Of a DNA stretch of 64,000 bases, positions 4,587-23,091 are shown piece after piece. Position numbers and translations under genes: made by a program. How positions within the stretch are numbered: the stretch's first letter is position 1; each line of letters starts with the position of its first letter. This DNA is from a virus (taxonomy: Duplodnaviria; Heunggongvirae; Uroviricota; Caudoviricetes). The notes beneath the pieces are model-generated. The model was not told the DNA's origin and did no database searches. It worked only from the letters and a program-made list of their open reading frames with translations. The stretch spans positions 1 to 64,000 of the IMG/VR virus record IMGVR_UViG_3300035522_000061; one strand, 5' to 3'.

Positions 4587-4660
4587 GGGTTGAAATTCCC
4601 GAGACTTAGGTCTCAAAATCCTTCATAATATACACTACCTTGACGAGGTATGAAGGCTTT
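4587..4660 (+). repeat. conserved ~80-nt intergenic element, copy 3
   Basis: Same flanks as copies 1 and 2. Central hairpin GAGAC-TTAG-GTCTC differs in sequence again but still pairs. Confidence 0.6.
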
Positions 4661-4801
4661 TAACAGAATGTGTATAATCCTTTTTGTAGGTTTGAGTAGA
4701 GTGAAGTATAGTAGCTCTCGGTTAAAAATCTACTATGGCAAGCAAGATCTTGAATATAATGTTGGCATTAAAATGAATCTCTAGCTAACGGAGTAAAATC
4801 T

Positions 4802-5023
4802 ATGCAATTAGGTAAGCATTCAATTTTTGAAGAGTTTGAAGTTATAGGCTTAGGAAAGATTACTATCCAAGCAAATAAAAATTATGGAATTATCGACATA
4901 GAGCCGAGAATTCCAGAGATTTTCTCTAAGTACTACGGACGTCAGATTACTGATACTAGAGTTCTTGGTGAGTTAGTAGAAGATATGTATAACACTTTAA
5001 AGTCAGTAGAAAATGAGAAGTAA
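4802..5023 (+). CDS. hypothetical protein
   Basis: 73-aa ORF. Confidence 0.4.
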   Translation: MQLGKHSIFEEFEVIGLGKITIQANKNYGIIDIEPRIPEIFSKYYGRQITDTRVLGELVEDMYNTLKSVENEK

Positions 5024-5468
5024 AGATTTCAAACCTGAAGAGCATATCGCTGATTTGAACAACCTGAAAAGAAATCTAATGTGTTTAAACAGACCTTTTA
5101 GTAGAAGTCTGTTTATAAGTGGACTCAAAGGAATTGGTCTGCCGGACAATGATGTTTTTTGGATGGCAGTGAAACGTAGCGGTATTGTACAACAGCTGAG
5201 CAGAGGCTGTTACATATTCAAGAACGATAAGCCAATACATATTAGTGTGCTGGCTAAAATTCACAAAGACTATCGTAAGATAGTCTGTGATTATAGCAAG
5301 ACTTACAGAGAAAAGCATTCCTCAAAAGAAGTTGAGAAACCTGTAGAAGCTCATGTTCAACTAGAACCTGTACATGAACTTACTGAAGAAAATGCAGTCA
5401 AACTTCTGAAAGAGCTAGGCTATATAATATATAAGCCTGAGGTTGCGATTTTCTACAAAAAATTATAA
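5013..5468 (+). CDS. hypothetical protein
   Basis: 151-aa ORF, basic and Lys-rich. Confidence 0.45.
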   Translation: MRSKDFKPEEHIADLNNLKRNLMCLNRPFSRSLFISGLKGIGLPDNDVFWMAVKRSGIVQQLSRGCYIFKNDKPIHISVLAKIHKDYRKIVCDYSKTYREKHSSKEVEKPVEAHVQLEPVHELTEENAVKLLKELGYIIYKPEVAIFYKKL

Positions 5469-5503
5469 ATGGAGTTCATTTTTTAGTTTTTAGTTGGTTT
5501 GCG

Positions 5504-5666
5504 AAGATACCACTTGTTTACAATTTTTAACATCAAAAATTTGGAATTGTGCTCAAATAGTGGTATCTTTGCATTACTTACTCAGAGAAATAAAATATAA
5601 GGTGGCACACAGCAAATTATAAAAACTTAACTTGAAATTAAGGATTATTTTGCCACCTGTTTACAA
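5504..5666. promoter_or_regulatory. inverted- and direct-repeat region upstream of the tRNA array
   Basis: Inverted repeat AAGATACCACT/AGTGGTATCTT (5504-5514 and 5559-5569). Second inverted repeat AGGTGGCA/TGCCACCT (5600-5607 and 5651-5658). Direct repeat CCAC(T/C)TGTTTACAA appears twice. Confidence 0.35.
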
Positions 5667-5724
5667 GAATACTTACAGCAATTAATATTAAAATTAAATA
5701 TCTATATAAAGTATTCTGTAAGTT

Positions 5725-5797
5725 GCAGCATTCGTCTAGTTGGTTAGGACGTCAGATTTTCATTCTGGAAACTAGAGTTCAAATCTCTAACGCTGTA
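5725..5797 (+). tRNA. tRNA-Glu (anticodon TTC)
   Basis: Acceptor GCAGCAT/ACGCTGT. Anticodon stem TCAGA/TCTGG with loop TTTTCAT. T-arm TAGAG-TTCAAAT-CTCTA. Confidence 0.5.
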
Positions 5798-5800
5798 CAA

Positions 5801-5872
5801 AGGGGTTATCGGTATTATTAATTTCTTCGGTTCTACTACTAGTCGAGTTCGACTCTCGACAACCCCTCTAAT
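5801..5872 (+). tRNA. tRNA-like gene (anticodon arm not resolved)
   Basis: Acceptor AGGGGTT/AACCCCT and T-arm TCGAG-TTCGACT-CTCGA. No clean anticodon stem could be folded by eye. Confidence 0.3.
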
Positions 5873-6045
5873 TTGTTTGTTTTTTGTCAAAGATCCATTT
5901 TATATTACTCGGTATGTGATATATAGAGTAATAGGGAGAAAGGTTAAAGTGAGTTCGATTCTCACACTCTCCCCTAATTTTTTAAATTGGCGAAACATTG
6001 TTAACACTGTTCTAACTCTATGTGAATATCGTTAGAACTTTTATC

Positions 6046-6117
6046 GCGGAATGGAGAAGTGGTATCTCGCTTGGCTCATAACCAAGAGATCGCAGGTTCG
6101 AATCCTAGCTTCCGCTA
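6046..6117 (+). tRNA. tRNA-Met/fMet (anticodon CAT)
   Basis: Acceptor GCGGAA/TTCCGC. Anticodon stem CTTGG/CCAAG with loop CTCATAA. T-loop GGTTCGAATCC. Confidence 0.5.
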
Positions 6118-7372
6118 CTATGTTTTTGTTTATGATGTTATATTGAAGTCAGCCCTATGTGAATATCGCTGATTCTATTATTTCATTATTTGTGAATTAT
6201 TTAATTAAAAGTTCTTCACCCTATGTGAATATCGTGAAGTTTTAAGGAACTAAATGGTATATGAAGGTTCGATTCCTTCTAGTTCCACACTGTATTTTGA
6301 AGATAAGTTTTAGGTTCGTGAGAATATAGAATTAGGGAATAGATTATATTTTTAGTCTATTCCCGTATTTTTAAATAGGACTTATGATGGTTCTTCGAAT
6401 GAAGAAATCGTAACTACAAGAACATCTTTTAGATGTTAAAGTCTTGTTCTAAGACGTAACTGCTTAGAGGTGTTAGCCTACACGAGGGTATAAGGGCATC
6501 AAATAATTTTATATTTATGAAAAAGCAAGAAATTGTATTAAGTGCTTACATGTTAATTATGGCAATGTTAGCATTTGTGGTGGTATTTTAAAAGTAGGTT
6601 CGATTCCTACCTTGCTACAAAAAATCTTTGTCGCCGAGTAGCACCATACCAGCCTTGTAGGGAAGGTAAACTACGTAATAAGCTTTAAATCGTGGGGATT
6701 CCTTTACTAATACTAAAGGTGCATTGCGCAATATGATAGGTATTAGGATAGTACGAAGTACTAGACAGAAAGGCAGAGATTTAAGAGGAGAGTATTATTA
6801 CTTTCCTCTTTTAAAAGATTATACTTCAAGTGTTATATATACTTTTGTTATTTTCGTAGTTACAGGTTTGTGAAAATATGTAATTATGTTTGGGAAGATA
6901 TTGGTTATTTTGTAAGTTCGAATCTTACTCTTCCCACTCCTCATAGTTTCTCCAGCTATTAAAAATTGGAGGGATCGCCATCCGCCAGAGAGTATGGAAG
7001 TTAGGTCGCTTACTGTTAAAGGCGATGGGTTTGTTTGCTAATTTTGTTAACCCGATTAAAATTTCAAATTTAGCTATACAGTAAAAATACACTTAATGTT
7101 TGAAACAAACTTTAAATAGTTCCGAGGAAACTTGTATTTTACTGTTAAAGGTATTTAGGAGTAATTAGAAACTCGCATTAATTTGGAATATTACAATTAG
7201 TGAGTGTGGGGCAGTGCCACCTAAATATACTCTTCATGTGTTTAAGTTTTTTACTATTGCCTCTGTGAAGATCCAATAGTTTTAATTTTAAAAAGTATGG
7301 AATAGTTATTAAAATGGTGTTAGGAGATAGATTCAAAACCTAAAAATTCTCTTATTATAAAAATATTAAATT

Positions 7373-7445
7373 GGGATATGGTGTAACGATTAGCACTAGA
7401 CATTTTGGATGTTTCAGATTTGGTTTGAATCCAAATATCCCAACA
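7373..7445 (+). tRNA. tRNA-Gln (anticodon TTG), tentative
   Basis: Acceptor GGGATAT/ATATCCC. Anticodon stem AGACA/TGTTT with loop TTTTGGA. Non-canonical T-loop TTTGAAT. Confidence 0.4.
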
Positions 7446-7480
7446 TTAGATTAAAAATATTAATTTTAATTTTTTAAATT

Positions 7481-7621
7481 ATGAAAAAGTTATTGTTAGT
7501 TTTTGGTGTTGCGCTTCTTATGAGTGCTTGCTGTAATGGTTCTTCTACAGAATCTAGTACTGATTCAACAGATTCCGTTGTTGTTGATTCTGTAGCAGTT
7601 GATTCAACTGTTCAACTCTAA
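7481..7621 (+). CDS. putative small lipoprotein (46 aa) inside the tRNA array
   Basis: MKKLLLVFGVALLMSAC has a lipobox Cys. The mature region is a Ser/Thr/Asp-rich repeat. The ORF is below the track threshold. Confidence 0.35.
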   Translation: MKKLLLVFGVALLMSACCNGSSTESSTDSTDSVVVDSVAVDSTVQL

Positions 7622-8428
7622 ATGGCAATTTAGCGAGTTCGATTCTCGCTTAGAGTGCAAAAAGGATAGTATTCTAGTTTAATCCTTTAGTTACCCATGA
7701 TGGGTAACGTTACTCACTACTTTTAGGTATTAAGTAAAGTTTTTCAGAAAATGCTAGATTGCCTATTTCTGAAAATGCGCTTTTTAAAACGGCAAATAAA
7801 AAGGGTAGAGTACGCCCAAGTCATTTAGTCCTGTTCCTAACCACCTTCTAAATCTGACTTGTAAATATTAAGGTTTGTAAGGTGAGGTCGTAATGAAACA
7901 CTCAAATGGTTAGTCCTTTTGATGCCTATGTTAATGTTTAGCCATCAACGAACATTACGTTTATTAATATGTTAGTGTTAAGTGTTCCCATATCTATTAA
8001 ACTCAATCCTTTATGTATATTCTAGGAACTACAAATCAGAAAGCTTTTGTGATTATAGAAAGTGGAAAAGAAATTATTTTTACTTATGATTATACAAGAG
8101 CTAACCAGTATGAAAAAATAGGAGATGCTATGAAAATGGCAGCTACTATAAATCACATATTAGGAAAATGTATAATATCAATAATAAGTGGAAATTTTGA
8201 TTGATTTTACGTTATGCTTAAATATTTTAGGCATTGCCTTAATAGCTGTAATAAGCTATCTTTTTAAAACCTCAGTTTCTAGTAATCTGTAAACTAGTGA
8301 CTTTTCGAATTTTCAACAAGAAAACTAGGGTTTAGCACAACCTAAAAGTGAACTGACCAATGTCTATTGGTAAAAGAGGTTTTATTGTATTGGTGAGGTT
8401 TCCGATATGTAGAATAAGATCTCTTAAT

Positions 8429-8495
8429 TCCTTATAGCTTAACTGGATAAAGCGCAATATAGTATTGAGTTTTGGGTTCGAATCCCAATAAGGAA
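8429..8495 (+). tRNA. tRNA-like gene (degenerate anticodon arm)
   Basis: Acceptor TCCTTAT/ATAAGGA. D-arm GCTT...AAGC. T-arm TGGG-TTCGAAT-CCCA. The anticodon arm has only a 4-bp stem and a 5-nt loop. Confidence 0.35.
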
Positions 8496-8513
8496 ACAAT
8501 AATATTTTAGATT

Positions 8514-9023
8514 ATGAAGAAGATTTTACAGATTTTAGTATTTTTTACATTAAATGGGTATGCTCAACAAGTGTCTGTTAAAGGACATGAATTTATCAAA
8601 GAGCATGAAGGATTAATTCTTACTGTTGATGCAAGAAATCAAATTGGATATGGACATCTTAATAAAAAAGGTGAATCATATAAAAGAATAACTAAAGCTA
8701 AAGCAGAGCAATTATTTGTTCAAGATATTACAGAAGTTAATAATGCTATTAGTAGGCTCTTAAAAGAACTTCCTAAAGTTAAATATACTCAAGGTTTTAT
8801 TGACGGTTTAGGAAGTTTAATTTATAATTGCGGTGAATATGGGGTAGCAAGTTCAGAATTCTATCGTAGATTATCAAATTGTAGAGTTTCTAATGGCACT
8901 TTTAATATCCAAGATTTTGAATTTACATTAGCAGCAGTGAAATCCTTAAGATGTCCAACAAAAGGACATAAGTTAAGAAGAAACAGAGAATATAAATTGA
9001 TGCGTAATGGCATCTATAATTAA
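8514..9023 (+). CDS. GH24 (T4-type) lysozyme with N-terminal signal peptide, putative endolysin
   Basis: EHEGL...TVDARNQIGYGHL matches the T4 lysozyme catalytic E...D...T(I)GYGH region. The N-terminus MKKILQILVFFTLNGYAQQ resembles a signal or SAR sequence. Confidence 0.55.
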   Translation: MKKILQILVFFTLNGYAQQVSVKGHEFIKEHEGLILTVDARNQIGYGHLNKKGESYKRITKAKAEQLFVQDITEVNNAISRLLKELPKVKYTQGFIDGLGSLIYNCGEYGVASSEFYRRLSNCRVSNGTFNIQDFEFTLAAVKSLRCPTKGHKLRRNREYKLMRNGIYN

Positions 9024-9172
9024 CATTTTAAAATTAAAGATTATGAAAAGACTCAAAAAATTCGTTAAGTGGTATTTCGAGAATGCACCTTATGCTATGA
9101 TGCCATCTGGTTTTATTCCTTACAGTATTAGTGACAATCGTCATTAATACTTTTTTGAGCTGTAAAAATTAA

Positions 9173-10768
9173 ATGATTATGTTTGACAAAAAATTAACAA
9201 ATCTCTTTGATGAGTCTATTGATGTAAAAAATCAATATGAAACAGTTTCAGAAAACGGAGCTGTAAAATATTCAACTTCTGGAAATGCTTTTATAGATAA
9301 TTTTGCTAGTATTGGTTCTTTTAGAGATCCTAGAGCATATTCTGAAGTAGCTAATGACATGGAACTTTTATGGAATGTAGATCCTTTAAAGTGTCTTAAA
9401 TTAGCAGTTTATATCCGAATGATTACAAGAGCTACTAAAAATGATGATGAAATATTAGAAGTACAAAAAGGACAAGGATTGAAAAATGAGGGCATTCTAA
9501 GAATAATCTGGATTGCAATTAATCATCCTAATACTTTTAAATCTAATATTTCTATATTTATATTAGCGGGTTCTTGGAAAGATATTTTCACAATGCTAAA
9601 TTTAGATTTACAATATCATGGTTGGAATAATCGTGTTTTAGATTGGAATTTTATGCTAGGAGTTATTCAAGCTGGATTAAGTAATAAAAATTGTACTAAT
9701 CTTGTTAGAAAATATCTTCCTACTATAAAGACTAATTCTAAAGCAACTACAATAAAATCACAAGCAGATACTATAATAGGCAGATGGATAGCTAAAAGTT
9801 TATTTAATTCTAAAGAATCTTTTAAAGAATATAGAAAACTTAAAAGTAAAGGTTCTGCTCATAAATGGCAGCAATTAATATCTAAACGATTATTTGATAA
9901 AATAGATTTTAATTCCGTTTCTGGGCGTGCTTTATCCCTTTTAGTTAATTCTAAATTTTTAGAAAATCAAAATCTTTCTAACAAATACTTAGAATGGATT
10001 AAAAATCAACCTATAGCTAAATATACTGGATATGTATTTGAACTCTTTAAACCTTGTGAAAATGTTACCCAAGTTCCAGAATATGTAAAGTACACTATTA
10101 ATGCACAATTCAAGAATTTATTGCAAGAATCTCCTTCTAAATTATTAGTTGTTAGAGATACTTCAGGTTCTATGATGAGTATGGTTCCTGGTTGTAAAGT
10201 AACTGCATTTACCATTGCTAAAGCTCTTGCATTATATTTTTCAACTGCTTTAACAGGTAAATTTAAAGATACTTATGCCGAATTTAATGATACTTGTGTT
10301 TTACACAAATGGAAAGGTTTAACTCCCGTTGATAAATATTTAAATGACACGCACTATAGCATTGGAAATACTAATTTTCAAAGTGTTATTGATTTGTTTA
10401 TTAACATGAAAATGCTTGGTTGTACATCTTTTCCAGAAGGTATTCTTTGCATTTCAGACGGGCAATTTGATAGTTGTGGTACTGTTTCTAATTTTAATAA
10501 GGCAATTGATAGACTTAGAAGAGCTGGATTTGATAAAGAATATATAGATAATTTTAAAATTATACTATGGGATATTCCAACTTGGACATCTTCTAAACCT
10601 AAGTTTGAAGATTTTGCAGATGCTCCCAATTTTTATCATTTGTCTGGATATGATCCTTCTATTATATCATTTATATTAGGAACTAAGAAGAAAAGTACTC
10701 CTAAAAACGCATTAGAATTGTTTGAATCTGCTATGGATCAAGAACTTCTTAATAGGTTAACAATATAA
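9173..10768 (+). CDS. large protein with vWA-like domain (DxSxS MIDAS motif)
   Basis: 531 aa. VVRDTSGSMMS is a MIDAS-like motif followed by an alpha/beta region. No other domain recognised. Confidence 0.4.
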   Translation: MIMFDKKLTNLFDESIDVKNQYETVSENGAVKYSTSGNAFIDNFASIGSFRDPRAYSEVANDMELLWNVDPLKCLKLAVYIRMITRATKNDDEILEVQKGQGLKNEGILRIIWIAINHPNTFKSNISIFILAGSWKDIFTMLNLDLQYHGWNNRVLDWNFMLGVIQAGLSNKNCTNLVRKYLPTIKTNSKATTIKSQADTIIGRWIAKSLFNSKESFKEYRKLKSKGSAHKWQQLISKRLFDKIDFNSVSGRALSLLVNSKFLENQNLSNKYLEWIKNQPIAKYTGYVFELFKPCENVTQVPEYVKYTINAQFKNLLQESPSKLLVVRDTSGSMMSMVPGCKVTAFTIAKALALYFSTALTGKFKDTYAEFNDTCVLHKWKGLTPVDKYLNDTHYSIGNTNFQSVIDLFINMKMLGCTSFPEGILCISDGQFDSCGTVSNFNKAIDRLRRAGFDKEYIDNFKIILWDIPTWTSSKPKFEDFADAPNFYHLSGYDPSIISFILGTKKKSTPKNALELFESAMDQELLNRLTI

Positions 10769-11923: not shown

Positions 11924-13852
11924 ATGTTACAAACTAGTTTTATTGTTGCAGGAATTCTTGTAGTTCTTGTAGTGTTGACCGTAATTGGTCTAATGTCGCG
12001 TTATCGTAGATGCGCAAGTGATGAAATTCTTGTAGTATTTGGTAAAGCTGGAAAGAAAACCCAGATTAATCCAGAAACTGGCAAGAGCGAAACAGTTGTT
12101 TTGCCTTCTAAAATTATTCATGGCGGAGGTACATTTGTATTTCCGATTATTCAAGATTGGCAAAAAATGTCTTTAACTCCTATACAGATTCAAACTTCTG
12201 TAGTTGGAGTATCTAGCCAAATGATTAAAGTAACTATTCCTGTAACATTAACTACTGGTATTGGTACTACTCAGGAGCTTATGCAAAATGCTGCTAGTCG
12301 TTTCTTAAATGCTGAATTAGAAGAAATTGCTAATCAAATTAAGGATATTCTTATTGGTGAAATGCGTAGTCTTATGGCTACTATGACCATTGAAGAAATT
12401 AATGCTGATCGCGGTAAATTCTTAGGTAAAGCAAAAGAGAACATTGAAACTGAAATTAATAAAGTAGGTTTCACTATTATTAATATTAATAATGCAGATA
12501 TTTCTGATGATGCAAATTATATTAAGAATTTAGGTAAGAAAGCAGCCACTAAAGCTCAAGCTCAAGCAGAAGCAGATATTGCAGAAGAAGAAAAGAAGGG
12601 TCAAATTCAAATTGCCGAAACTAACAAGGAAAGGGAAATTGCTGTTGCTAGTGCTGAAAAAGAGCGTGCTACTCAAGTAGCTCAGACTCAGCAAGAGCAG
12701 GAAGTAAGAGTAGCTGAAATTAATCAGGATAAGCAAATTAAATTGGCAGAAGCTGAAAAGATTAAGACTACTGGAGTCGCAGAACAACAAGCTGAACAGG
12801 CTGCTAATGTAGCTAATGCTAAAACTAAAGCAATAACTGCACAAGCAGAAGCAGATGCGATTAAAGAAGCTAATGTTGCTAAAGCAGAATCTGAAGCTGA
12901 ATCAGCTAAAGCAGCTAGAAAAGCAGAAGCTATTGCGTCAGTAGCCAAGTCTAATTCAGAAGCAGAATCTGCAAAAGCAGAAGCAGAAGCTCAGAAACAA
13001 ATTAGAATTGCTAAAGCACAGCAAGAAAAAGAAGCTGAAACTCAAAAAGCAATTAATGACCAGCAAGCTAAAGTTGCAGAGTATGAATCTACTAAGAGAC
13101 AGAAAGCAGCAGAAGCTAATAAGAAAGCTGGAGTAGCAGAGCAACGCGCAACTATTGAAGTAGCACAAGCTAAAGGAGAAGCAGCCAAAGCAGAAGCAGA
13201 AGCAATAAAAGTTGCTGGTACTTCTAAAGTAGAGGCTCAAATGTCAATTGCTAAAATTGAACAAGAGAAACAAATAGAAGTAAACGAAGCTAAAGCTTTA
13301 GCAGAACAAGCTAAATTGAATGCTGAAGTTATTGTTCCAGCTGAAACTGAGAAGGAGAAAATTCGTATTGAAGCTGAAGCGATTAAACAAAAAGCTATTC
13401 TAGAAGCACAGGCAGAAGCAGAAGCTATTCGAACTAAAGCTTATGCTGAAGCAAATGCTACTCAAACTAAGTTAGAAGCAGAAGCAGAGGGTACTAAAAA
13501 GAAACTTTTAGCAGAAGCAGAGGGTAAAAGAGCTTCTTTAATGGCTGAGGCAGATAAGGTACAAGCTATTGAGATGGCTCCTGCGCTTGCTGTTAAGCAA
13601 ATGATTGAAGCTGGATTGACTCCTGAACTTGTTGTAAATTATAAAACAGTAGATCAATTAGCAGATATTGCTACAGCACAAGCTAAGATATATGAGCATA
13701 TTCAGCTTGGTCAAGTTACTGTTTATGGTGGTGAAAATACTGCTGGTAACTTTATGTCTAATATGGCTAAGAATCTCAGTCCTGCAATGGATATTCTTGG
13801 TAATTTGCCTATTGCAGATACTGTTAAGAAAGTGTTTGGAAGTACTAAATAA
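11924..13852 (+). CDS. flotillin-like SPFH/band-7 protein with long Ala/Glu/Lys-rich (EA-repeat) coiled coil
   Basis: N-terminal TM helix, SPFH domain (ILVVFGKAGKK...IPVTLTTGIG...MTIEEINADR), then ~350 aa of AEAEA/KAEAE repeats. The C-terminus resembles bacterial FloT/YqiK. Confidence 0.75.
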   Translation: MLQTSFIVAGILVVLVVLTVIGLMSRYRRCASDEILVVFGKAGKKTQINPETGKSETVVLPSKIIHGGGTFVFPIIQDWQKMSLTPIQIQTSVVGVSSQMIKVTIPVTLTTGIGTTQELMQNAASRFLNAELEEIANQIKDILIGEMRSLMATMTIEEINADRGKFLGKAKENIETEINKVGFTIININNADISDDANYIKNLGKKAATKAQAQAEADIAEEEKKGQIQIAETNKEREIAVASAEKERATQVAQTQQEQEVRVAEINQDKQIKLAEAEKIKTTGVAEQQAEQAANVANAKTKAITAQAEADAIKEANVAKAESEAESAKAARKAEAIASVAKSNSEAESAKAEAEAQKQIRIAKAQQEKEAETQKAINDQQAKVAEYESTKRQKAAEANKKAGVAEQRATIEVAQAKGEAAKAEAEAIKVAGTSKVEAQMSIAKIEQEKQIEVNEAKALAEQAKLNAEVIVPAETEKEKIRIEAEAIKQKAILEAQAEAEAIRTKAYAEANATQTKLEAEAEGTKKKLLAEAEGKRASLMAEADKVQAIEMAPALAVKQMIEAGLTPELVVNYKTVDQLADIATAQAKIYEHIQLGQVTVYGGENTAGNFMSNMAKNLSPAMDILGNLPIADTVKKVFGSTK

Positions 13853-14343: not shown

Positions 14344-14429
14344 GGCGAAATGATGAAAGTTGGTAAACATAGGGGACTTAAAATCCCCCGATCATTATGA
14401 TCTTGCGGGTTCGAGTCCCGCTTTCGCTA
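14344..14429 (+). tRNA. tRNA-Leu (anticodon TAA), type II
   Basis: Acceptor GGCGAAA/TTTCGCT. Anticodon stem GGGGA/TCCCC with loop CTTAAAA. Long variable-arm hairpin GATCAT-TATG-ATC. T-arm GCGGG-TTCGAGT-CCCGC. Preceded by the palindrome GTATTGCAATAC. Confidence 0.7.
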
Positions 14430-21450: not shown

Positions 21451-22071
21451 TTGAAACATTTAACTCTAAGTTTAGAAGAGGAAATAAATCTCTTGGACAA
21501 ATATAATTTAACTCCTAATGAATTCCTAATAGTTAAAGTTCTTCTATTATTGCAAGATAATGAAGAAGAAGAATTGTTTTATAATTTAATAACAACTATA
21601 AAACATATTGGGCTTGCATTGCGAGATATTCTTATTAGTTTACAAGAGAAGGGTGTAATTTTAAAAACATATAAAGTACCATCTGAAGGAACTAAATTTG
21701 ATCCTTTTGCTATTCCTATTAATAAGAATTTTGTAAAGCATTTTTATAAATGTTCTTTTGAAATAGGTAAAGAATTATTTGATAATTATCCTCAGTTCGC
21801 TACTATTAACGGTTGTGTAGTACCCCTACGTACTGTTGCTAAGAAGTTTGATTCATTAGAACAAGCTTATCTTAAATATGGTAGAGCAATTGGATTTAAT
21901 CCAGAAAAGCATGAGAAAATTATAGAATTAGTTAAATGGGCAAAAGACAATAATATCTTAAATTGTTCTTTAGCTTCATTTATAGTTAATGAAGGGTGGC
22001 ACGATTTAGAGGCTCTCAGAAATGGTAAAGATGTGGCAAATATTAATTATGATGCAGTTAGAATTTTATGA
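21451..22071 (+). CDS. hypothetical protein (upstream partner of the helicase, possible loader)
   Basis: 206 aa. ATGA-coupled to the DnaB-like gene. Confidence 0.35.
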   Translation: MKHLTLSLEEEINLLDKYNLTPNEFLIVKVLLLLQDNEEEELFYNLITTIKHIGLALRDILISLQEKGVILKTYKVPSEGTKFDPFAIPINKNFVKHFYKCSFEIGKELFDNYPQFATINGCVVPLRTVAKKFDSLEQAYLKYGRAIGFNPEKHEKIIELVKWAKDNNILNCSLASFIVNEGWHDLEALRNGKDVANINYDAVRIL

Positions 22072-22847
22072 TTGCAGAATCATTACTTCATCAGATTGAA
22101 GTAGGTAGATTAGGTAAGCAGTGGGGATACTCAATGGGTCTCCCAAAATTAGAAGAGATAATAGATGGAGTATCTAGAGGAATTTATACTTTAGTATTTA
22201 GTCCTACTGGTAGTGGTAAGAGTTCACTTGCTTTATATTCTTATGTATATAGACCATTAATGGAACATCTTGATGATGGTAATTTTAAAGTTAGTTATTT
22301 TTCATTAGAGATGAGCGCCGAAATGATCTATGCTAAGATATTAAGTATGTATATCTTTGAAACTTATGGAATAGAGTTGTCTACTGGAGAACTTCTTTCT
22401 AGAAAACGTAATTATAAATTATCTGATGATTATTATAAAATAACTCAAGAATGTTTACCTTGGTTACAGAAGGTTGAAAAGATTTTAGTTATTTATGATA
22501 AAGCATTAAATGCTAGTAGTTTATATACAATCTTAATGGCTCAACTAGAAAAAGATGGCAAGTTTGAAGAAACAGATGGTAGAAAAATATATCATCCTAG
22601 TAATGAAGAACTTACTCATTTAGTAGTTATAGACCATTTAAGTTTAGTAAGAAGGTCTAATGGACGTACTCTAAAAGAAGAAATGGATTTAATATCCTCC
22701 TATTTGGTAACATTAAGAAATATATGTAAAATTAGTCCGCTTGTAATTATGCAAGCAAATCGAAATTCTACTTCTATGGATAGAAGAAAAGAAGGATTAA
22801 ATAACTTAAGAATTGATGATACCAAAGATACTGGTGCGCCAAATTAG
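22068..22847 (+). CDS. DnaB-like replicative helicase RecA-fold domain, exon 1 (gene interrupted)
   Basis: Walker A SPTGSGKSS, Walker B HLVVIDHLS and MQANR motif. The ORF stops just before the conserved arginine-finger region, which reappears ~250 nt downstream. Confidence 0.6.
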   Translation: MIAESLLHQIEVGRLGKQWGYSMGLPKLEEIIDGVSRGIYTLVFSPTGSGKSSLALYSYVYRPLMEHLDDGNFKVSYFSLEMSAEMIYAKILSMYIFETYGIELSTGELLSRKRNYKLSDDYYKITQECLPWLQKVEKILVIYDKALNASSLYTILMAQLEKDGKFEETDGRKIYHPSNEELTHLVVIDHLSLVRRSNGRTLKEEMDLISSYLVTLRNICKISPLVIMQANRNSTSMDRRKEGLNNLRIDDTKDTGAPN

Positions 22848-23091
22848 GGCTAGACGCACCTAAAACTCCGTTAAACGGGGAAACTCCTAAATAGGACAAT
22901 CCCGTGCTAAATCCTTTAGAAATAAAGGAAAACGCCTAACGACTAGAAGTGATGCTAAACAGGTAGAGCTGTAGCTATAAAATCTTCCACGAAAGCGGGG
23001 CACTGCTTACATTTGTAAGTTAAAGAGATAGTCTGAACTATATAGTAATATATAGAAGTATAAGATAAAGAACTTATACGATAACATTATG
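22837..23091 (+). mobile_element. putative group I intron in the DnaB-like helicase gene (no homing endonuclease; boundaries +/-10 nt)
   Basis: ~255-nt GC-richer non-coding gap between two halves of one helicase. The downstream half has no ATG. Confidence 0.4.

Follow-up and report, generated by a model that had tools for sequence, protein, structure and literature searches.

The DNA analysed here, referred to throughout as the window, comprises 64,000 nucleotides (nt), positions 1 to 64,000 of the IMG/VR virus record IMGVR_UViG_3300035522_000061 (Caudoviricetes), with a G+C content of 30% and nearly all genes on the + strand. At approximately 5.5-8.5 kb it carries a cluster of RNA features composed of transfer RNA (tRNA) genes, hairpins with a conserved loop, small open reading frames (ORFs) and reduced tRNA-like elements, the interval 5470-8010 being devoid of any long ORF. 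The subject of this report is a set of four elements in this cluster, m1 to m4, all on the + strand and each approximately 42-46 nt in length, in which a 7-nt acceptor stem is joined to a canonical T-arm with 8-13 nt between them. An initial annotation of the window had described four such loci as leaving no room for D or anticodon arms, and all four were recovered on the + strand both by reading of the sequence and by an independent scan.

Structure and context of the minihelices

The element m1 (5934-5974; sequence, scans and RNAfold) consists of GGGAGAA, the spacer AGGTTAAA, the T-arm GTGAG TTCGATT CTCAC, one additional A between the T-stem and the acceptor 3' strand, CTCTCCC and a discriminator C. 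It is followed by m2 (6246-6287: GGAACTA, the 10-nt spacer AATGGTATAT, T-arm GAAGG TTCGATT CCTTC, TAGTTCC, discriminator A), m3 (6892-6936: GGGAAGA, the 13-nt spacer TATTGGTTATTTT, T-arm GTAAG TTCGAAT CTTAC, TCTTCCC, discriminator A) and m4 (7615-7657: ACTCTAA, the 11-nt spacer ATGGCAATTTA, T-arm GCGAG TTCGATT CTCGC, TTAGAGT, discriminator G). The last of these had been placed at 7616-7656; the element is present, in a register shifted by one base. Likewise, where four exact 7-mer complementarities had been proposed, the acceptor strands form seven Watson-Crick pairs of seven in m2, m3 and m4, and six of seven in m1. Position 3-70 is occupied by G-C in m1, A-T in m2, G-C in m3 and T-A in m4, and each of the four T-arms has a 5-bp stem, a 7-nt TTCRANY loop and the G53-C61 closing pair. 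Compared with the tRNA family (RF00005), none of the elements has a D-stem, the corresponding segment being reduced to 8-13 D-loop-like nt (AGGTTA, AATGGTA, TTGGTTA and ATGGCAA in m1 to m4, respectively), and an anticodon arm with a 7-nt loop is absent, there being no room for one. Judged from its sequence, the GG in these spacers resembles G18G19 and could possibly dock on the T-loop to give a tRNA elbow. What all four retain, by sequence and RNAfold, is a coaxial acceptor/T-stem helix of approximately 12 bp with its T-loop and a single-stranded 3' tail.

Folding of each locus with RNAfold returned the minihelix as both the minimum free energy and the centroid structure in all four cases, with z-scores from -1.5 to -3.2 (the latter for m2). 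Full-length tRNAs overlying these loci, which the initial annotation had named as the outcome that would speak against it, were found neither by Rfam, at gathering or permissive thresholds, nor by ARAGORN in its default, intron, relaxed (-ps90) and tmRNA modes; the metazoan-mitochondrial mode of ARAGORN alone calls a D-armless "mtRNA", over m4. With the Rfam tRNA model, m2 attains 29.0 bits, precisely the gathering score, in a local alignment from which the D and anticodon arms are left out, and m1, m3 and m4 go unreported at E values up to 10.

Chance pairing does not account for these elements. Shuffling of the 28-nt segments that precede the region's seven non-tRNA T-arms gave an expectation of 0.07 strict minihelices, as against three observed (P = 2.6e-5), which rules out a chance origin and bears out the earlier argument to that effect; the motif GTTCRAWTC occurs nine times in the window, as against 2.2 expected. 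Meaningful matches are confined to strict elements with a TTCGA loop, relaxed descriptors being swamped by noise (184 matches vs 134 in reversed-sequence controls). The paralogues m1, m3 and m4 display compensatory differences in both stems, a weak indication since the elements were selected for pairing. Among nine candidate elements, counted as spacer-less concatenates given that MAFFT does not bring their variable spacers into register, pairing stands at 96% and 11 of 12 pairs show changes on both sides; these having been picked for pairing, the counts document diversity and are not independent evidence of selection.

The placement of the minihelices is also distinctive. Six + strand hairpins in the cluster have in common a conserved loop of 14 nt (consensus YCTATGTGAATATC), carried by stems that vary in sequence yet stay paired, and four of these end 0-7 nt ahead of m1, m2, m3 and tRNA-Met. 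The hairpin preceding m1 (5903-5933; read from the sequence, with coordinates indexed by hand) is a variant of the family, with an 8-bp stem and the loop GGTATGTGATATATA, and abuts the element with no intervening nucleotide; those at 6214-6239 (loop CCTATGTGAATATC) and 6855-6888 (loop GGTTTGTGAAAATA) lie 6 nt upstream of m2 and 3 nt upstream of m3, respectively, and that at 6009-6038 (loop TCTATGTGAATATC) lies 7 nt upstream of tRNA-Met. The remaining two are found at 6147-6174, again with loop CCTATGTGAATATC and with no tRNA-like element downstream of it, and at 7253-7280 (loop CCTCTGTGAAGATC), 91 nt upstream of tRNA-Gln. In the closest relative, L042, a conserved-loop hairpin is located 7 nt ahead of a large tRNA-like RNA, and in more distant relatives a hairpin "frame" occurs approximately 7 nt ahead of each tRNA. 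Taken together, these placements identify a hairpin followed by a tRNA-like element as a repeating unit of the arrays, an order in which a cut at the tRNA-like 5' end would also free the upstream hairpin RNA. On the 3' side, as read from the sequence, the discriminator is followed by C in all canonical tRNAs except tRNA-Met and in all reduced elements except the one at 6594; CCA is encoded neither in the canonical tRNAs nor in the reduced elements. Processing punctuation, one of the roles earlier suggested for the minihelices, thus gains anatomical support from the position of m1 to m3 at 0-6 nt after hairpins and from the discriminator-plus-C context, the role itself being one that such anatomy would suit.

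The wider cluster, the Ro60-like gene and the relatives

All four canonical tRNAs previously named in the window were borne out by both ARAGORN and Rfam: tRNA-Glu(TTC) at 5725-5798, tRNA-Met(CAT) at 6046-6116 and tRNA-Gln(TTG) at 7372-7444, all on the + strand, and tRNA-Leu-TAA starting at 14344. At 22798-23055, Rfam places a group I intron (70.3 bits) that overlaps the ORF at 22068-22847 at its 3' end. Three further reduced tRNA-like elements accompany m1 to m4 on the + strand. One, at 5802-5867 (scan and folding), pairs the acceptor strands GGGGTTA and CAACCCC and carries the T-arm TCGAG TTCGACT CTCGA around a 34-nt core in which neither a D-arm nor an anticodon arm can be recognised. Another, at 6594-6618, is an orphan T-arm (GTAGG TTCGATT CCTAC, then CTTGCTA and C) with no convincing 5' acceptor strand, at which ARAGORN in -ps90 mode gives only a weak tRNA-Thr call (6546-6618); its T-arm sequence recurs in loop-capped (permuted) units of relatives, and a 24-residue hydrophobic ORF (6517-6591) stops 2 nt upstream of it. 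The third, at 8428-8496, possesses an acceptor stem, D-arm and T-arm, and an anticodon stem closed on a 3-nt loop (CAATA TAG TATTG), and cannot decode; it scores 50.9 bits with the Rfam tRNA model in a search restricted to the region, was missed by the whole-window Rfam gathering run (owing to filters) and by default ARAGORN, and is called by ARAGORN at -ps90 only. The window therefore holds a graded series, from a 3-nt anticodon loop (8428) through a 34-nt core (5802) to 8-13-nt spacers (m1 to m4), from which selection appears to act on the top half of the tRNA. A small lipoprotein-like ORF of 46 residues (7481-7621, + strand) precedes m4, whose 5' strand takes in the final two codons of that ORF, one sense and one stop; the ORF is kept in the relative L045, where no minihelix follows it.

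Upstream of tRNA-Glu lie two further stem structures on the + strand that resemble Y RNAs. The frame at 5601-5659 has the stem GGTGGC/GCCACC, whose 5' strand is followed by ACACAGCAAA and whose 3' strand is followed by TGTTTAC; the second, at 5667-5718, has the stem GAATAC/GTATTC with TTACAGCAA, and tRNA-Glu begins 6 nt later. In both, (T)TACAGCAA follows the 5' strand and TGT the 3' strand, and frames of this type also enclose YrlA-like units in relatives. Frames in general have stems that vary and covary, the 5' strand leading into a conserved (T)TACAGCAAA and the 3' strand into CTGATAAG or TGTWWA; beyond the two in the window, they were found in L007 (12080-12400), in L051 (Leptolyngbya phage Lbo-JY46; 6932-7232) and in L001, L002 and L004, often in tandem arrays. 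In Lbo-JY46, a cultured cyanophage, five tandem ACAGCAA frames stand directly after the Ro-like gene, and such frames may be Y-RNA-like partners of the Ro-like protein. The Rfam model for Dictyostelium Class I RNA (a stem with CCUUACAGCAA) matches 5667-5718 at 31.6 bits (E = 0.0025), which probably reflects convergence.

The gene in question is the ORF at 9173-10768 (+ strand), 1.5-3.2 kb downstream of the minihelices on the same strand, which carries the Pfam domains DUF2828 and DUF7788 and belongs to PHROG 850 ("RNA-binding protein"). An AlphaFold model of its product, built from 29 homologues with a mean pLDDT of 75, displays helical repeats and a vWA domain, and its best full-length Foldseek matches in the PDB are Ro60 structures (1yvr, E = 3.9e-6; 9nfa, 9nen and 2i91), albeit with low TM-scores of approximately 0.35; isolated vWA domains rank next. 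By tblastn it matches mycobacteriophage genes annotated "Ro-like RNA binding protein" over 84-94% of its length (E = 1e-9 to 4e-7) at 21-22% identity, and no PDB sequence was matched by a DUF2828 family profile. It is through the fold comparison and tblastn, and these only, that the protein is linked to Ro; we therefore treat it as Ro60-like by its modelled fold, not as a proven Ro60 orthologue, and as a candidate RNA-binding partner of the cluster. We found no functional literature on DUF2828. A DUF2828 gene also adjoins a tRNA array in Listeria phage A511, Bacillus phage Thrax4, Klebsiella phage KP2025 and many metagenomic phages. A Band-7/SPFH gene lies near it both here (11924-13852) and in Mycobacterium phage Aegeus.

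No close relatives of the window phage were found in the phage collection, where tRNAs alone match, or in the IMG/VR and metagenome scans, in which the best relative reaches 55% identity in the Ro-like protein; a search of 5.8 billion proteins returned near-identical strain contigs and, next best, 61%. The strain variants are 99.5-100% identical to the window and differ by two single-nucleotide polymorphisms (SNPs) in the 2.5-kb RNA region, one of which, A5859G in the element at 5802-5867, keeps the T-stem pair as G.U; flanking ORFs differ by 17 SNPs in 840 nt and by 4 in 510 nt. Across 4627-9500, compared with L036, L038 and L039, the SNPs cluster in the ORF at 5013-5468, with 13 falling within 5168-5294. 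The low density in the RNA region suggests constraint.

More distant relatives are phages of 150-180 kb that carry 20-25 tRNAs around the Ro-like gene, compared with four in the window phage, as well as many T-arms that no tRNA predictor explains. Their sequences show a repeated unit, comprising a variable stem strand, the motif TTACAGCAAA, a short linker, a T-arm, a 7-nt strand, a loop of 4-22 nt, the complementary 7-nt strand, TA, a D-arm, an A-rich linker and the complementary stem strand, followed after approximately 7 nt by a canonical tRNA. As read from the sequence, the order of parts is the permuted one of YrlA-type Y RNAs, and the Rfam YrlA model (RF02553) aligns to the T, acceptor-like and D arms of these units at 27-40 bits (E = 3e-7 locally), below its gathering score of 69 bits. 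Loop-capped permuted units occur in L002 (16600-16960), L001 (8000-8580), L004 (2185-2545) and L052 (KP2025; 9756-9930); some have 7-nt anticodon-like loops (GTT, TTT, GTC, CAT) and some encode an ACCA end. That they might be permuted genes yielding decoding tRNAs was considered and rejected, since the RF02553 alignment fits their topology better, in-silico de-permutation followed by ARAGORN being too permissive to inform. In KP2025 two loop-capped units lie just downstream of the DUF2828 gene. Genes for transfer-messenger RNA (tmRNA) are present in L002 (8277-8871; Rfam, 76 bits) and L009 (12724-13064; ARAGORN call) and explain recurrent orphan T-arms ending in AGGTCCA. These YrlA-like units and tmRNAs place m1 to m4 within known phage tRNA mimicry, rather than setting them apart as an isolated new class of small RNA, the alternative offered by the initial annotation.

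Strict minihelices are nearly confined to the window phage: approximately 650 kb of relatives yielded two, both in L010, as against 0.8 expected by chance, which is not significant alone, and the cultured phages A511, Thrax4, Aegeus and KP2025 contain none. Under relaxed criteria, five candidates with D-loop-like spacers were found (L010 at 409 and 9013, L013 at 13918, L045 at 9445 and L011 at 19331). Reduced tRNA-like elements do recur within approximately 1.2 kb upstream of the Ro-like gene, with acceptor-to-T-arm spacings of 11 nt in L045, 16 nt in L010, 23 nt in the cultured phage Lbo-JY46, 28 nt in L011 and 37 nt in the window (8428), compared with 40-43 nt in real tRNAs. In L042, tRNA-like genes with 8-nt and 6-nt anticodon loops lie just upstream of the Ro-like gene, and there is a tRNA fragment consisting of a 5' half (these features being at 9481-9559, 9716-9787 and 8060-8120). 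A search for the isoacceptors from which the minihelices might derive gave weak similarity only, and identifiable parentage was rejected: m3 compared with tRNA-Tyr of L042, and m4 with its tRNA-Ile, agree in the acceptor at 6/7, with unrelated T-arms. In L013 (13800-13959) and L003 (15480-15630), ORFs for HNH endonucleases end directly ahead of T-arms or minihelix-like elements, which suggests that mobile ORFs have inserted into tRNA or tRNA-like genes of the relatives.

Other noncoding features are shared among these phages. A two-hairpin motif (ACCTCAGTTTCTAGTAATCTRTAAACTAGTGA ... TTCAACA ...), whose stems differ from phage to phage by compensatory changes and which has no Rfam match, occurs upstream of tRNA or tRNA-like genes in the window (8266-8359), L042 (7903-7958), L049 (4868-4964), L050 (9378-9445), L011 (9716-9798), L017 (7758-7838) and L012 (8352-8411). 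A conserved block of the form ACTACGTAATA..TTAAATCGTGGGGA..TTGCGCAATA is found at 6680-6745 and in L042 at 9355-9430; an exact scan of viral contigs for ACGTAATA-NNNN-TTAAATCGTGGGGA gave no further copies. A 33-nt stretch at 7890-7922 is 100% identical to L042 (7532-7564) and occurs also in L049 (4302-4330).

Processing modules, decaying genes or tRNA mimics

We tentatively interpret m1 to m4 as non-decoding, top-half tRNA-like RNA genes that serve as minimal processing modules punctuating the transcript, a reading to which we assign slightly less than an even chance of being correct. Reduction of tRNA genes is their most likely origin, as indicated by the 20-25 tRNAs that relatives hold around the Ro60-like gene, of which the window phage retains a complement of four. 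The features kept through that reduction, namely the acceptor/T-stem stack, the T-loop, the D-loop-like linker and the 3' context, are those read by RNase P, by the machinery for 3' ends and CCA, and by elbow binders. Acceptor/T-arm minihelices are reportedly substrates of bacterial RNase P, a finding attributed to McClain, Guerrier-Takada and Altman in 1987, and they are also substrates of the CCA-adding enzyme. [quoted passage not shown]

From the sequence, structure, non-random occurrence and context of the minihelices, and from the recurrence of reduced forms in relatives, we infer their transcription, cleavage, CCA addition and role. They would be co-transcribed with the tRNAs, conserved-loop hairpins and small ORFs of the 5.5-8.5 kb cluster and would fold into minimal substrates for the tRNA-processing machinery. 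By cutting at the acceptor 5' end, RNase P would at once generate the 3' terminus of the hairpin RNA located 0-6 nt ahead of it, and the 3' side would be trimmed past the discriminator, with CCA completed by the CCA-adding enzyme, as in the neighbouring tRNAs. The primary role would be to punctuate the polycistronic RNA, and the freed CCA-tailed minihelices of approximately 45 nt may additionally act as tRNA mimics. Several observations weigh against this interpretation. Two of the six conserved-loop hairpins have no tRNA-like element after them. An RNase P cut at m4 would remove the stop codon of the ORF at 7481-7621 and leave a non-stop mRNA, which is awkward for simple punctuation. The near confinement of strict minihelices to this phage, the loss of tRNAs and the degenerate-looking remnant at 6594 fit ongoing decay. 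The sole close relatives are near-identical strains, which offer no measure of orthologous conservation or true covariation, and the low SNP density of the RNA region could instead stem from recent recombination.

Some of these same observations favour the view that m1 to m4 are neutral tRNA pseudogenes, left by recent internal deletions as the array shrank and with stems intact merely through youth. The retention of four tRNAs here compared with 20-25 around the same gene in relatives, the presence of other truncated forms (the element at 6594 with its orphan T-arm, that at 5802 with its unusual core, and the 5'-half tRNA fragment of L042), the near absence of strict minihelices from relatives together with the lack of orthologous conservation, and the overlap of m4 with the stop codon of the ORF at 7481-7621 are all as this view would have them. 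It nevertheless calls for four independent events, each removing the D-stem and anticodon arm and sparing the GG segment, a perfect T-loop and six or seven of seven acceptor pairs; nor would it lead one to expect the regular placement after leader hairpins, the recurrence of reduced forms upstream of the Ro-like gene in distant relatives, or the smaller number of SNPs in the RNA cluster than in flanking ORFs. We regard it as somewhat unlikely, if far from negligible. Two other derivations can be considered briefly. That the elements are fragments of complete tRNAs, whether intron-containing, split or permuted, with other parts elsewhere is brought to mind by the permuted loop-capped units of relatives, by T-arms there cut off from their 5' strands by HNH ORFs, and by the group I intron elsewhere in the window; yet each element has its own adjacent complementary 5' strand and no 3'-strand complement downstream, and ARAGORN intron mode and the Rfam tRNA, YrlA and permuted tmRNA models find nothing larger, which makes this very improbable. 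Still harder to credit is that they are DNA-level copies of host tRNA 3' ends acting as attachment or recombination sites. It is common for the attachment site of a phage to repeat the portion of a host tRNA gene from T-arm to 3' end; here, the T-arm plus 3'-strand segments of m2 and m3 (22-24 nt) have no exact match among one genome each from 185,579 species, and a complementary 5' strand would be needless.

A different kind of function is envisaged if the elements are effector tRNA mimics, either, alone or with the upstream hairpin still attached, as the tRNA-like module of a Y-RNA-type ribonucleoprotein with the Ro60-like protein, or as decoys for host factors that read the acceptor stem, T-arm and CCA end. 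In bacteria and phages alike, YrlA RNAs are tRNA mimics whose genes stand within 4 kb of the Ro60 gene (Chen et al. 2014; PMC4201824), and these Y RNAs with tRNA-like modules find a parallel in the position of the Ro60-like gene, which follows at 1.5-3.2 kb on the same strand, and in the clustering of reduced tRNA-like elements just upstream of it. YrlA-like mimics are, moreover, interleaved with the tRNAs of relatives, loop-capped units stand beside the Ro-like gene of KP2025, and ACAGCAA frames occur right after that gene in Lbo-JY46 and at 5601-5718 in the window. By analogy, the defence nucleases of the Cas12a3 type, which recognise the acceptor stem, T-arm and CCA tail of tRNAs (PMC12851939), offer an example of what decoys might engage. 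Set against this are the lack of any YrlA match at 5300-8200 of the window at E values up to 10, the non-permuted topology with no D-arm, and a Ro60-like label that derives from a pLDDT of 75, a TM-score of 0.35 and 21-22% identity; we consider this role unlikely. A more specific version, which we judge more doubtful again, would make the hairpin-plus-minihelix units and the gene-adjacent reduced tRNA-like elements a non-permuted, modular counterpart of Y RNA, in which the hairpin is predicted to bind the DUF2828 protein and the CCA-tailed top half to recruit or titrate a host factor, candidates being PNPase, other exonucleases, and defence nucleases or toxins that target the acceptor end, such as those of the Cas12a3 type. 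If true, this would define a new class of phage adaptor RNAs in anti-defence or RNA decay.

Phage tRNA arrays are usually read as a supply of codons or as a counter to anticodon-nuclease defences. Elements consisting of the top half only can serve neither purpose and point instead to selection on top-half recognition, whether by RNase P, by the 3'-end and CCA machinery or by elbow or acceptor binders. The occurrence of YrlA-like units and tmRNA in this phage group, and of Ro60-like DUF2828 genes beside tRNA arrays both here and in cultured phages of Listeria, Bacillus and Klebsiella, suggests that a tRNA-mimic or Ro-type RNA system operates in many large phages. This system has barely been studied, and the minihelices would be its simplest natural members; Leptolyngbya phage Lbo-JY46 provides a cultured relative in which a reduced tRNA-like element and tandem frames adjoin the Ro-like gene.

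Comparison with known tRNA-like RNAs

The minihelices share features with several non-decoding relatives of tRNA and differ from each. Like the YrlA Y RNAs (RF02553), they are non-decoding mimics with a canonical T-arm, a few kb from a Ro60-type gene (here a Ro60-like one) on the same strand. YrlA is, however, circularly permuted, in the order T-arm, acceptor stem, D-arm, with a loop-capped acceptor-like stem, a D-arm and ends in a long stem, whereas m1 to m4 run from acceptor 5' strand through spacer and T-arm to acceptor 3' strand, with free acceptor ends and neither D-stem nor enclosing stem. The YrlA Ro-binding motif GNCGAAN0-1G and its enclosing stem are absent from the surroundings of the minihelices, the frames at 5601-5718 having ACAGCAA instead, and RF02553 found no match in 5300-8200 at E values up to 10. 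The neighbouring gene differs as well: YrlA stands beside Ro60, while here the neighbour is a DUF2828 protein that is Ro60-like by fold and not a TROVE-domain Ro60. With the tRNA-like domain of tmRNA, m1 to m4 have in common an acceptor stem and T-arm, a D-loop analogue with no D-stem and the lack of an anticodon arm; a tmRNA, by contrast, includes a tag reading frame, pseudoknots and G3.U70, where the minihelices have 8-13 nt between their strands and no G3.U70, and the tmRNA mode of ARAGORN reported nothing in the window.

As to function, closer counterparts may be found among processing signals. Plant mitochondrial t-elements, the mascRNA of MALAT1 and the tRNA punctuation of mitochondrial transcripts are non-decoding or punctuating tRNA shapes that recruit RNase P and RNase Z to set the ends of neighbouring RNAs; in the same manner m1 to m3 lie directly after hairpin RNAs and m4 after an ORF. 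Those systems are eukaryotic or organellar, the present one is from a phage, and a literature search found no tRNA-like processing signals described for phage tRNA clusters. The RNAs of species 1 and 2 in the T4 tRNA cluster, approximately 120-140 nt in length, are co-transcribed and co-processed with the phage tRNAs; they are likewise small non-tRNA RNAs of such a cluster but larger and not minihelices, the comparison being one drawn by the initial annotation. The nearest match in form is with synthetic minihelix substrates of RNase P, the CCA-adding enzyme and some aminoacyl-tRNA synthetases, which have the same 12-bp coaxial helix and T-loop. These are laboratory constructs, whereas m1 to m4 are encoded in a genome and possess a D-loop-like linker; a literature search turned up no report of phage genomes encoding acceptor/T-arm minihelices. 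The elements m1 to m4 thus lie outside the tRNA, YrlA and tmRNA families, yet by analogy would work in the manner of tRNA-like processing signals and tRNA mimics.

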